NCBI GenBank assembly: GCA_945889495.1
Contig: CAMDBU010000006.1
Coordinates: 506-64,505, forward strand
From: Syntrophobacter sp. SbD2
GTDB taxonomy: Bacteria; Desulfobacterota; Binatia; UBA9968
Length of the DNA: 64,000 bases
Direction of reading: 5' to 3'
Shown: piece by piece, positions 1-6,577 of the stretch
How the letters are laid out: each line of letters begins with the position of its first letter
How positions within the stretch are numbered: position 1 is the first letter of the stretch
Notes under the pieces: generated by a model
The model's database searches: none
The model's input: the letters and a program-made list of their open reading frames with translations, nothing else
Told to the model about the DNA's origin: nothing
Position numbers and translations under genes: made by a program

Positions 1-742
1 AGGATGATACTGGAGGCGAGGGCATTCACCGACGACTTTAGTGCTGCCGACTGTTCCGTCCGCATCGGCCAAGTGCCGCTGATCGAGAATCCGGCGCGAA
101 CGACTGCATCAAGAAAGGTCTCCCAGCCAGTGCTAGCGGTTCCGTCGATCCCGTCGCTTTCTGCCTGCTTGAAGGCGTAGTAGATGGTGACCGGAAAGGC
201 CGGATGCGACTGCTCCGCGAGGCGGTGCATCGCCTGAGTCATGCCGTCGAGGAAGAAGGTCTCGGCCTCCTCCTTGCTACCGTGCCGGTATGGCGACGCA
301 ACCAATTCCTCTGCCTTGGGCACCGCGACCGTTGCGAAGAGGTCTGGGAAGATCGGGCGTAGCGAGCGGCGTAGCCAGACGTAGAAGAAGTCTGACAGGT
401 CGGCATATCCGACGTTGTCGTAGTACGGCGGATCGGTGCTGACTATTGGTGCGTCAGCGAACAGATCGCTGGTCACTTGCGCCGCCGACTGCCGCGCATG
501 GCCGTTCTGATTTGAGCCGAGACTGAAAAGCACTTTCGCAGCATCGCCGTACGCACCTTCCCAGTCCCCGCCGGCGCCCGCAAACGGATTGCACTCGGGG
601 AAGTCCCACACCATCGGAATCGCTTGCCGACCGAACGCGCGTCCGCTTTTGCTCATATTTGCGCGCCACACACCCATTGAGCAGTGATACGAATTATCTT
701 TGAGACCGTTTCCCCCAGATACACGGCCACTGCCTCGGCATA
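1..742 (-). pseudogene. continuation of the same DUF1156 methyltransferase in a different frame (apparent frameshift somewhere between ~650 and ~750); runs off the window start
   Basis: Manual translation of the minus strand (codon phase ...441-443...) gives ...[108 protein letters not shown]...; DPPY is methylase motif IV; frame stays open to position 1 and overlaps the end of ORF 653..2122 out of phase. Confidence 0.6.
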
Positions 743-2122
743 CGCCGGCGCGCCACTGCCGCCGTCACGGAGTGGCTTGGGGTCGGCGGTAAGGCCGGCT
801 TGGAAAGCGTCGTGGTGCACCCGCTCGCGCGCTTCCTGCACTAGGTCGGAGAAGGTCGTCAGCGCCACGAGCTGGCGGCGGGTAAAGAGGTCGCCCCACG
901 TCGTGAGGCCGTAGGGCGTGCAGTTGCCACCGGTCATTCGCTTGGCGATCTCGCCCTCCGGCTTCCACGTCGGCTGCACGGTCAGCGCGAGGGCTTCCAT
1001 CTCCGGCGTCGGCGCGAGGTAGACCCGCCCGCGATCACCCTCGGCGACGATGGCCATCAGCCGCGCACCCATGCGCCCTTCTTTTCCCTCGGCCTTGATG
1101 TAGTCGCCCGACACCGGAGTGCCGGACATCAAGCAGGCAAAGTTCGCGCGCGACAGCTTGGTGCCGTTTTTCGCCCCCTCCGCGTCCTTCGGCTTGCCCA
1201 CCTTCACCGTGAACCGATAGCCGCCGTTCTCGATCATCGGCTCGACATATACCTCCCTGCCCGCCTTGGTGGAGAGCATGAAGGTTGAGACGAGCGGCAC
1301 GTCTACCCGTGCGAAGGCCGGGTTCGGACTCTTTACTGTTCGCGCCCAGAGCCAAGCGATCACGGTGAGCTTGCGGCCGACGTAGGGTTTGAGGTCCGAG
1401 CGATCTTTCGCAATCTCGGCTGTGACGTCGACCTTCGGATAAAGATGGCCGATGCGCTTCTCGGCTTCGTCACGCATCCATTTTCCATAGTATCGAACGT
1501 CTTCGGCGAGGCCTTGCGCGCCTTTCCAACCTGTCTGCGAACCGATCTTCTTTCGCGACTCGGGATTTACCGGCGGTTTGCCGGCAAACTTCGGCGGAAT
1601 CTCGATCATCGCTTTGTTGATCAGTACAGCCACGGGGTTCAAATCAGACGCATAAGATTCCAGACCGAGCCTCTGCGCTTCAAGTGGTATCGAGCCTCCG
1701 CCAGCAAATGGATCGTGAAACGCGGGAAGTTTATGCCGGTCGAATAATTCTTTAGCGCGCGGATGATCCGCGTTCTCCGCGCACGTTGCGCGCCAACTCT
1801 GCCAGATCTCGTCACGCGCGCGCTGAAGCACTTCCTCGTTGGTGGTGTTCTCCCACAGCACGAGATCCTCAATGATCTTGAAAAGCCGTTGTCGCTCTTT
1901 CTCTTGCGCCTTCTCGGTCTTGAAAATGTCCGGATGCGCCGACGGATCGTCCACCATCTGCGCAAAGATCACCGCCCGCGCCGCCGCCAACGGCCGCCGC
2001 GCCCACCACAAATGCAACGTCGACGGATGCCCATGCCGAATCGACTTCTCCCGCGCCGAAGCTTTGTTGATGGCTTCCAGGGGCAAAGCGACTTCGATGA
2101 GTTTTTTCTTGTATGCGGTCAT
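653..2122 (-). CDS. DUF1156-family (COG1743) adenine-specific DNA methyltransferase, N-terminal 489-aa portion; ORF terminates prematurely (continuation in another frame at 1..742)
   Basis: N-terminus [44 protein letters not shown] matches the DUF1156 signature; SAM-binding motif [14 protein letters not shown]; TGA stop at 653-655. Confidence 0.85.
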
Positions 2123-6000: not shown

Positions 6001-6577
6001 TGCCGGTGCGGGCGGCTTCGAGTTTGTCGTTGGTCAAAATATCGAAAGGCAGTTGGAAGCGACGGTAAAGCTCGTCCTGCCACTGATCGACGAGGCTGCC
6101 AGGACAAACGATCAAACATCGCTGAAGATCGCCGCGGACAATCAACTCCTTGATGAGCAGCCCGGCCATGATCGTCTTGCCGGCGCCTGGGTCGTCTGCT
6201 AGCAGAAACCTTAGCGGCTGCCGGGGCAACATCGCCTCGTAAACCGCAGTGATCTGGTGCGGCAACGGGTCAACTAAGGAAGTGTGAACGGCCAACACTG
6301 GATCGAAAAGATGCGCGAGCCTAATACGATGCGCTTCCGAGACCAGGCGGAGAAGACTGCCATCGCCGTCAAAACTCCAAGGCCGGCCCTGCTCGACGAT
6401 CTCAAGTCGCGGCTCGTCATGGCGGTAAAGCAATTGGTTGGCGACGCGCCCCCCCGAATCTTTGTACGTGAGTTCGAGAGCCTCTGAGCCGAACCATTGC
6501 ACGTTCACAACCGTGACGAGGGTATCGGGTAGGATGCCACGAACAGATGCATTGGGAGTAAGGTCTTCGAGTTTCAT
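3002..6577 (-). CDS. SNF2-family DEAH-box helicase fused to C-terminal DUF3883 (NOV-like, restriction-endonuclease fold) domain; defense-island helicase
   Basis: 1191 aa; Walker A DDPGAGKT, DEAH box LIVCDEAHKM, helicase C motifs (QRFGRIHRIGQ); C-terminal GYDIESKD...FIEVKGRASG...LTVSRNEILYS typical of DUF3883. Confidence 0.9.
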   Translation of the reverse strand: MKLEDLTPNASVRGILPDTLVTVVNVQWFGSEALELTYKDSGGRVANQLLYRHDEPRLEIVEQGRPWSFDGDGSLLRLVSEAHRIRLAHLFDPVLAVHTSLVDPLPHQITAVYEAMLPRQPLRFLLADDPGAGKTIMAGLLIKELIVRGDLQRCLIVCPGSLVDQWQDELYRRFQLPFDILTNDKLEAARTGNWFLENNLVIARLDKLSRDENVQEKLKAPDCHWDLIVCDEAHKMSASFFGGEVKFTKRHKLGQMLSPLTRHFLLMTATPHNGKEEDFQLFMSLIDGDRFEGRFRDGVHTADVSDLMRRMVKEKLLKFDGTPLFPERIAYTTPYKLSNGEARLYKEVTDYVREEFNRAEALQNDRRAGTVGFALTILQRRLASSPEAIYQSLRRRRERLEKRQRELELLQRGAVAQALADQGPALDQEDVDDLEEAPDNEVAATEEQVLDQATAARTIEELKAEITTLQHLESLALSVRRSGEDRKWRELANLLSHIFTRASVADRVGEESAPYGSGDIPKPVPSPRQKLVVFTEHRDTLNYLEQQISTVLGRKDAVVLIHGGMGREERKKAQESFLHDPEVQVLAATDAAGEGINLQRAHLMVNYDLPWNPNRIEQRFGRIHRIGQTEVCHLWNLVADETREGDVYRTLLEKLEEARKSLGGQVFDVLGKLQFEGRPLRDLLIEAIRYGEQPEIRARLTHAVSHAFDRKELEDLLEERALAHDAMDASRVQRVREDMERAEARKLQPHYIESFFLEAFKQLGGTLRQRETRRYEVTHVPAPIRNRDRLIGVGEPVLQRYERIAFEKPLIAPQGQPLAAFVCPGHPLLDAVLDLTLERNRDLLRRGSVLVDERDAGDKPRVLFYLEHAIQDASITRTGERRVISKQMLYVELDSAGNTRHLQYAPYLDYRPLKPDEPTVLDILARPECSWITRKLEQKAQGHAIAQVVPEHLQEVRGRRVEWINKTRAAVKDRLTKEINYWDHRAEELKLQEQAGRANARVNSQEARRRADDLQGRLQKRMEQLDLESQISALPPVILGGFVVVPLGLLAKITGKSVSEAKDMVDRLAVAARARGIIMEVERSLGFEPVDREFDKVGYDIESKDPKTGKLRFIEVKGRASGEQTLTVSRNEILYSLNTPDDFILGMVEFVQGGAHQVHYLRQPFQREPDFHVTSVNYNFPELLARAEPPR

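Follow-up and report, generated by a model that had tools for sequence, protein, structure and literature searches.

An Hma (type-1 BREX-related) operon with embedded cassettes, a frameshifted methylase gene and knock-out alleles in related strains

The three-gene architecture now called Hma was first noted in 2013 as an Ava_2192-type operon resembling restriction-modification systems (PMC3710099) and was defined and named by PADLOC (Payne et al., 2021, PMC8565338); a reclassification in 2026 made it a type-1 BREX-related (BR) system, with a HEPN-fused ATPase variant in 1,370 taxa (PMC12839542). In the proposed mechanism, HmaC, an ORC/STAND-like DUF499 ATPase with an N-terminal HEPN RNase, would scan and recognise invading DNA, HmaA would translocate on DNA and nick or cut it via its PD-(D/E)xK domain, and HmaB would mark host DNA through N6-adenine methylation (PMC12839542, PMC3710099). 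Experiments with a homologue have demonstrated the HmaA step; on its own, HmaA defends against T4 via its nickase and is non-toxic without HmaB (PMC11232893, 2024). Embedded genes were reported in 62.7% of 1,485 Hma systems (bioRxiv 10.1101/2024.01.29.577857) and, in a second survey, in about 66.5% of Hma operons (PMC11232893), and HEPN and nucleotidyltransferase-linked HEPN modules are listed as auxiliary effectors inside BR loci (PMC12839542). We analysed a 64-kb stretch of contig CAMDBU010000006.1 (the window), in which inspection of open reading frames (ORFs) within positions 1–6577 identified four co-oriented minus-strand genes: hmaA, a minimal nucleotidyltransferase (MNT) gene, a HEPN gene, and hmaB. 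We read this region, with a probability of about 0.85, as the 5′ two-thirds of an Hma operon with embedded cassettes, a broken hmaB, and knock-outs in the surrounding population; its identity as an Hma, or type-1 BR, operon with two embedded cassettes is secure.

HmaA matches the PADLOC HmaA model from profile position 2 to 1171 of 1176 (E = 0, 1694.5 bits) and has Pfam matches to SNF2-rel_dom, ResIII, Helicase_C and NOV_C (1.6e-17), the last being the family that an earlier, sequence-only reading of this DNA called DUF3883. Walker A (DDPGAGKT) and DEAH-box-like (CDEAH) motifs are legible in the protein, and its nuclease triad is present (D1100...E1115-V-K1117); the D...E-x-K triad is shared with Hma of Halomonas meridiana, for which the nuclease mutant E1104A was used (PMC11232893). 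HmaB is recognised by Pfam DUF1156 (3.6e-33) and, in an intact sister allele, by the PADLOC HmaB model at full length (1543 bits). These strong matches bear out the sequence-only reading, which had named the helicase and the methylase, had placed all genes on the minus strand with a HEPN/MNT pair between the two (HEPN, Pfam PF05168, 7.2e-21; MNT, Pfam NTP_transf_2, 7.6e-13, and Polbeta, 1e-09, with PADLOC PDC-S09/PDC-M05A), and had suggested Hma as the name of the system.

The same reading had expected that a DUF499 partner would lie past position 1. Three public contigs are recorded as carrying the HmaA protein, and one of them, ERZ27280223:k141_2265121 (76.7 kb), matches the window with 100% identity over 16,577 bp; because this window-identical contig continues into hmaC, the partner exists, about 2.5 kb past the window edge. 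Beyond position 1, out of sight of that reading, the contig carries the rest of hmaB, DuOB, DUF488, DUF488-N3a and hmaC, which gives the full order hmaA - [MNT-HEPN] - hmaB - [DuOB, DUF488, DUF488-N3a = PDC-M45] - hmaC, all on one strand. HmaC matches its PADLOC model at full length (1158 bits), and has Rx4H (RNRWAH), Walker A (GGGKTH) and Walker B (LIDEW) motifs. The spacers are 86 nt between hmaA and the MNT gene and 68 nt between the HEPN gene and hmaB, with a 4-nt overlap of MNT stop and HEPN start (GTGA); downstream of hmaB the gaps are 9 nt (hmaB-DuOB), 1 nt (DuOB-DUF488) and 11 nt (second DUF488 gene-hmaC), and the two DUF488 genes overlap by 4 nt. Both cassettes are probably co-transcribed with the hma genes. 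A promoter and terminator scan of positions 1..7600 stayed at chance level (3 promoter-like matches against 2.3 expected), and transcription units are not definable from it.

Like the described Hma systems, including that of H. meridiana, the locus encodes the three core proteins at full length (HmaB in its intact allele), all co-oriented (PMC8565338, PMC11232893). It also shares with the type-1 BR system the DUF499 ATPase, the DUF1156 N6-methyltransferase and the Swi2/Snf2 helicase with a C-terminal restriction endonuclease domain; there is no architectural difference from that system (PMC12839542), and the locus adds one more instance, found in a bacterium that is uncultured and probably Candidatus Binatia. 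It differs from the Halomonas operon in the N-terminal HEPN_Swt1 domain of HmaC, in the frameshift of hmaB, and in its cargo, which is MNT/HEPN and PDC-M45 here and Septu plus an AAA_21 gene pair in Halomonas. HmaA also matches, more weakly, the DrmD model (402 bits) and the BrxHI/BrxHII models (315 bits), and BR components are homologous to type-3 BREX proteins (PMC12839542), so that the helicase and methylase might be assigned to DISARM or type-3 BREX instead of Hma. This assignment is exceedingly improbable: the HmaA model matches over the full length with a score about four times as high, the ATPase of the locus matches HmaC/DUF499, and no DrmA/B/C, PglZ, BrxC or BrxL-type Pfam domain was recorded in the 23.6-kb locus. 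DISARM was rejected on the weaker DrmD match and on finding no DUF1998 or PLD gene in that locus, and type-3 BREX on the identity of the ATPase and on the lack of any recorded PglZ or BrxC-type domain in the called genes.

The sequence-only reading considered the placement of the HEPN/MNT pair unusual and the region a fragment of a defence island, and neither view held. Since about two-thirds of known Hma operons have genes nested between hmaA, hmaB and hmaC, and relatives carry other cargo in the same slot, the placement of the pair is the normal state. PADLOC requires the hma genes to share a strand and allows no more than three embedded genes between neighbouring ones (bioRxiv 10.1101/2024.01.29.577857); the operon, which has two embedded genes in the hmaA-hmaB slot and three in the hmaB-hmaC slot, agrees with this rule. 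Because the flanking genes are of housekeeping type (Amdase, RecD2 and CorC at one end, an amidohydrolase at the other), the operon is self-contained, with no multi-system island around it; the GC content of the Hma region (55–61%) equals that of the adjoining DNA.

For the DUF1156 methylase gene, the family named by the sequence-only reading was confirmed, but the gene is not one open frame: a 1-bp deletion, overlooked earlier, divides it into two frames. The first frame stops at position 653 and reading resumes in another frame, the cause being a single C absent between window positions 694 and 693 relative to the sister contig L002, which encodes a 959-aa HmaB. The context is GATAA/TTCG in the window (the slash marks the deletion) and GATAACTTCG in the intact allele, with neither a repeat nor a homopolymer. 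Both parts match the PADLOC HmaB model, the 5′ part at profile positions 8–492 (818.9 bits) and the 3′ part at positions 491–718 (361.8 bits). The break separates the S-adenosylmethionine (SAM)-binding motif I, DPFAGGGS (aa 137–144), from the DPPY motif (residues 564–567 of the intact protein), and because the deletion splits hmaB between these two motifs, the methylase of the window strain is most likely inactive. The deleted allele is recorded on 2 contigs, the 3′ part being annotated as a separate 470-aa gene on the identical contig. As an hmaB pseudogene, the window copy would be excluded from the published curated set (bioRxiv 10.1101/2024.01.29.577857).

Contigs of related samples with identical flanking genes show three allele states. 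In H1 both hmaA and hmaB are intact (ERZ27280197, three samples); in H2, the window, hmaA is intact and hmaB has the 1-bp deletion; in H3 hmaB is intact and hmaA carries a C>T substitution at window position 3871 (Q903*), found in four different samples (L122, L123, L124, L128), together with a shortened G tract (G6) where the contigs reach it. The nonsense mutation would remove the last 289 aa of HmaA, including the nuclease domain, and the G6 tract, present in contigs of ERZ27280192, ERZ27265268 and ERZ27265269, shifts the hmaA frame near its 5′ end. Intact hmaB alleles were found on L114, L122, L123 and L130. With related strains either intact or hmaA-null, and the window strain hmaB-null, the predicted effects of these alleles together indicate that the system has repeatedly and independently been knocked out in this population, which is probably Candidatus Binatia. 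The hmaB frameshift, and the sister contigs that are intact or carry the hmaA knock-out (Q903* with G7→G6), are what is new here. The Hma architecture and cassette nesting were already known, and apart from the strain-specific knock-outs the locus is an ordinary example.

Several points weigh against this reading of the locus. The frameshift comes from short-read metagenome assemblies, and hmaC and PDC-M45 lie outside the window, where they are known through the identity of a metagenome contig. The 3′ part of hmaB starts with an ATG that overlaps the premature stop (ATGA), and because the two halves share this stop-start overlap, a methylase that reassembles from two pieces is conceivable. Methylation by HmaB has never been demonstrated, and HmaB overexpression left T4 infectivity unchanged (PMC11232893). 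The toxin activity of the embedded HEPN protein is uncertain because the canonical Rx4-6H motif is absent: R-YPPLS-D stands in its place, and a His lies upstream in KIHELD, although HEPN motif variants have been noted and some motif-less HEPN proteins are still toxic (PMC3710099). The assembly origin of the data also raises the possibility that the hmaB frameshift and the G6 tract of the sister contigs are sequencing or assembly errors and that the operon is intact in all strains. All contigs are short-read metagenome assemblies (MEGAHIT-style contig names, Logan) and length calls in homopolymers such as G7 versus G6 are error-prone, but we judge this explanation quite improbable: the hmaB deletion lies outside any homopolymer and gives the same truncated product on both contigs, G6 recurs in three separate assemblies, and Q903* is a substitution that is linked with other single-nucleotide polymorphisms in a consistent haplotype.

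The G tract at hmaA codons 40–42 invites a different account of the knock-outs. In the phase-variable Pgl/BREX system, the variable G tract lies in pglX of Streptomyces coelicolor. By analogy, the hmaA tract may be an evolved contingency switch for the nuclease, with the other lesions being secondary. It lies early in the effector gene, is polymorphic in length between samples, and is the sole G/C run of at least seven in the 64-kb window, against 14.4 expected from shuffles. On the other side, only one tract with two lengths was observed, the hmaA genes of eight other Hma loci showed no comparable G/C tract, and G6 travels with the nonsense mutation on L122, the one contig spanning both hmaA sites, which resembles decay more than reversible switching. 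Because of this linkage plain decay is at least as likely, and we regard the switch as a doubtful explanation. The variable-length G tract in a BREX-family gene is shared with Pgl (cited in PMC12839542), in which the tract is in the methylase gene; here it is in the helicase-nuclease gene and its reversibility is hypothetical. The three Hma papers contain no mention of phase variation or frameshifts.

Set against the repeated knock-out of Hma in this population, the H2 haplotype has a bearing on the logic of the system. Among the three, H2 alone has a 12,361-bp low-GC (39–50%) element (window positions 16126–28486), located 9.5 kb from hmaA and missing from the sister contigs. Because a strain with a broken hmaB and intact hmaA and hmaC persists in nature, and is the only haplotype with this newly inserted foreign element of 12.4 kb, we entertain, as a tentative proposal of low probability, that the Hma methylase is dispensable for protecting the host against its own nuclease and that Hma is repeatedly, perhaps reversibly, switched off, admitting mobile DNA. 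If so, restriction would depend on the methylase, as in BREX, or else the nuclease would be gated in another manner, and each switch-off, perhaps via the G tract, would open the cell to mobile DNA. The hmaB-null, hmaA-intact haplotype agrees with the published non-toxicity of HmaA without HmaB (PMC11232893). Being viable, it bears on the question of whether Hma/BR systems follow restriction-modification or BREX-like logic; from metagenome assemblies of a single lineage, it gives a hint that the methylase is unnecessary for self-protection and that Hma does not follow simple restriction-modification logic. The locus by itself adds little, since PADLOC would call it automatically and cassette nesting in Hma is the published basis of "guilt-by-embedding".

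Features of the Hma region and of its continuation beyond the window; positions are those of the window
Feature	Position	Strand	Length	Description
hmaA	6577..3002	-	1191 aa	SNF2-family helicase with C-terminal PD-(D/E)xK nuclease (NOV_C/DUF3883); intact in window
MNT	2915..2598	-	105 aa	Minimal nucleotidyltransferase, putative antitoxin; 5′ gene of embedded pair
HEPN	2601..2191	-	136 aa	Putative toxin
hmaB	2122..1	-		DUF1156 methylase; runs off window at HmaB profile position 718/967
hmaB 5′ part	653..2122	-		Residues 1-476, then 13 out-of-frame residues and stop
hmaB 3′ part	1..656	-		Shifted frame, HmaB residues 490 onward, contains DPPY; runs off window
hmaB deletion site	693..694	-	1 bp	By comparison with sister contig L002
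G7 tract	6449..6455	-		hmaA codons 40-42 (KDSGGR); G7 or G6 between assemblies
hmaA codon 903	3869..3871	-		CAG (Gln) in window; TAG stop in sister contigs
Sigma-70-like promoter match	6612..6641	-		TTGCCA-18-TAGTAT, 9/12 matches, upstream of hmaA; weak evidence
DuOB	beyond window position 1		233 aa	PADLOC PDC-M45A, 330.2 bits
DUF488	beyond window position 1		207 aa	PADLOC PDC-M45B, 305.4 bits
DUF488-N3a	beyond window position 1		145 aa	PADLOC PDC-M45C, 255.9 bits
hmaC	beyond window position 1		1114 aa	PADLOC HmaC, 1157.6 bits; HEPN_Swt1 2.4e-38, DUF499 3.2e-27

Both sets of embedded genes are slot cargo: by their domains and profile matches, MNT/HEPN is a putative toxin-antitoxin-type module and PDC-M45 a candidate defence cassette. 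The MNT/HEPN pair resembles the described MNT-HEPN type II/VII toxin-antitoxin pairs, which are likewise small mobile pairs found in many contexts, in that the MNT gene lies upstream and overlaps the HEPN gene and in that MNT has the GS-x10-DxD motif (GSYAKGNATADSDVD); it differs from them in its HEPN protein, which is of the classical PF05168 type with R-x5-D replacing Rx4-6H, and its RNase activity and AMPylation control are putative (PMC3710099). A PDB sequence search with the HEPN protein found no relative. A metagenome search with the same protein gave 23 loci, in which the MNT/HEPN pair is 76–88% identical at the DNA level, with homology edges that are sharp at both ORFs. At least 13 of these loci adjoin Hma genes, including two distant HmaA lineages: at L101, where the pair occupies the same slot, HmaA is just 33% identical and yet the cassette is 85% identical (DNA). 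The pair was also found with no Hma gene nearby, beside a nonribosomal peptide synthetase gene (L103) and beside a RelE/ParE-like pair (L090).

The hmaA-hmaB slot was compared in five complete Hma operons (L003, L007, L014, L020, L035) in which PDC-M45 directly follows hmaB (5 of 80 loci recovered with DuOB, described below). It holds a PDC-M30A-like gene in L003, whose HmaA is 77% identical to that of the window, a trio including a helix-turn-helix gene in L014, SIR2 in L020 and an M78-like peptidase in L035; no clear ORF was found in the gap of L007. As the slot cargo differs and the same cassette recurs in distant Hma and in non-Hma loci, the comparison argues that the MNT/HEPN cassette moves between loci and that the hmaA-hmaB slot exchanges cargo. 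One MNT/HEPN cassette in two Hma lineages that are 33% identical, together with close relatives differing in cargo, makes this a clean natural case of cassette exchange. At L064, where hmaA was not recovered, PDC-S06, DUF6615 and a Schlafen/AlbA_2 protein gene lie between hmaB and DuOB.

The recurrence of the pair beside Hma genes could instead mean that MNT/HEPN is no independent toxin-antitoxin passenger and serves as a dedicated back-up effector of Hma, in which MNT would restrain the HEPN RNase until failure or inhibition of the main system sets it free. HEPN modules have been proposed as auxiliary or back-up effectors in BR loci (PMC12839542), the pair is co-oriented with the operon with no terminator-like site in either flanking spacer, and the Hma-adjacent majority spans two distant HmaA lineages, although these adjacency counts are phylogenetically non-independent. 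The copies beside the synthetase gene and the RelE/ParE-like pair, the unrelated cargo that close Hma relatives have in the slot, and the frameshifted HEPN gene of about 7 of the 23 relatives all tell against such dedication, and we hold it to be unlikely. In four contigs a remnant of the hmaA 3′ end only is followed by the MNT gene and then by a frameshifted HEPN gene. Exchange of the cassette as slot cargo is the reading that we prefer.

Other MNT/HEPN copies have conserved flanks that are kept regardless of their neighbours; the window copy has different spacers. A leader of about 110 nt upstream of MNT, seen in L084, L085, L086, L091, L101 and L103, contains a terminator-like hairpin (GGAGCCGC...GCGGCTCC, then a T run), and a trailer with repeated AATTTGCCGAT motifs follows HEPN in L085–L090, L092, L093, L102 and L105. 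At L088 (84–5645), the 3′ end of a window-like hmaA and the MNT/HEPN pair are followed by a second, divergent, full-length HmaA-like gene (PADLOC HmaA, 661 bits), PIN and DUF5677, an arrangement that represents either a tandem of helicase genes or two neighbouring systems.

PDC-M45 is a phage defence candidate of PADLOC-DB v2, and all three genes here match its A, B and C models at full length. An alignment search of genome representatives with DuOB gave 80 loci, the best match being 76% identical; the host species is not among the representatives with this cassette. The DuOB-DUF488-DUF488 triad is kept in nearly all of these loci and lies between hmaB and hmaC, as here, in about 10 of them, the Hma-embedded copies falling in at least 6 separate places of a neighbour-joining tree without bootstrap support. 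This highly conserved candidate triad fills the hmaB-hmaC slot in several unrelated branches of its tree. In contrast, in 21 of the 80 loci a gene for a Schlafen/AlbA_2 + HATPase_c_4 protein of about 415–440 aa abuts the triad upstream on the same strand, which suggests a module of four genes that differs from the form embedded in Hma; examples are L024 (8657–9985), L028 (8737–9984) and L032 (8735–9985), with 18 others. A PDB sequence search with DuOB and DUF488-N3a found no relative, and a literature search on DuOB, DUF488-N3, PDC-M45 and PDC-S09 found no relevant publication. Burroughs and Aravind in 2023 reportedly placed DUF488 in a RapZ-C/DUF488/DUF4326 clade of the rhodanese-phosphatase superfamily, with predicted roles in DNA-end processing.

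Downstream of PDC-M45, hmaC of the sister contig L123 diverges abruptly from about codon 174 to the contig end (about 8708–8802, where 25 of about 95 bp are mismatched), immediately behind the HEPN_Swt1 domain and about 3.06–3.15 kb beyond window position 1; the preceding 8.7 kb are nearly identical. The abrupt change suggests either that L123 has another hmaC allele or that a recombination breakpoint lies in the sensor ATPase.

The low-GC element of H2 interrupts a gene for a 1223-aa protein, leaving ORFs 13332..16130 and 28603..29370; the gene is intact in sister contigs. The insertion is flanked by the 6-bp repeat GCGAAA, and its right end resembles the 3′ end of a tRNA gene; no tRNA gene was found in the window. 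The cargo of the element includes a tyrosine-recombinase catalytic domain (23612..24178), an H-NS gene, an AAA ATPase, a Sel1-repeat protein and DUF2628 proteins. The element also contains, at 22534–22670 on the plus strand, a sequence that matches the Rfam Polynucleobacter-1 RNA motif over its full length, scoring 93.5 bits where the gathering score is 37. This motif is known from Betaproteobacteria; the host here appears to be Candidatus Binatia. Directly downstream of the large interrupted gene, positions 29413–33723 hold a pair of neighbouring genes for KaiC/RecA-like ATPases (241 and 260 aa) and, after them, a ClpB-type chaperone gene.

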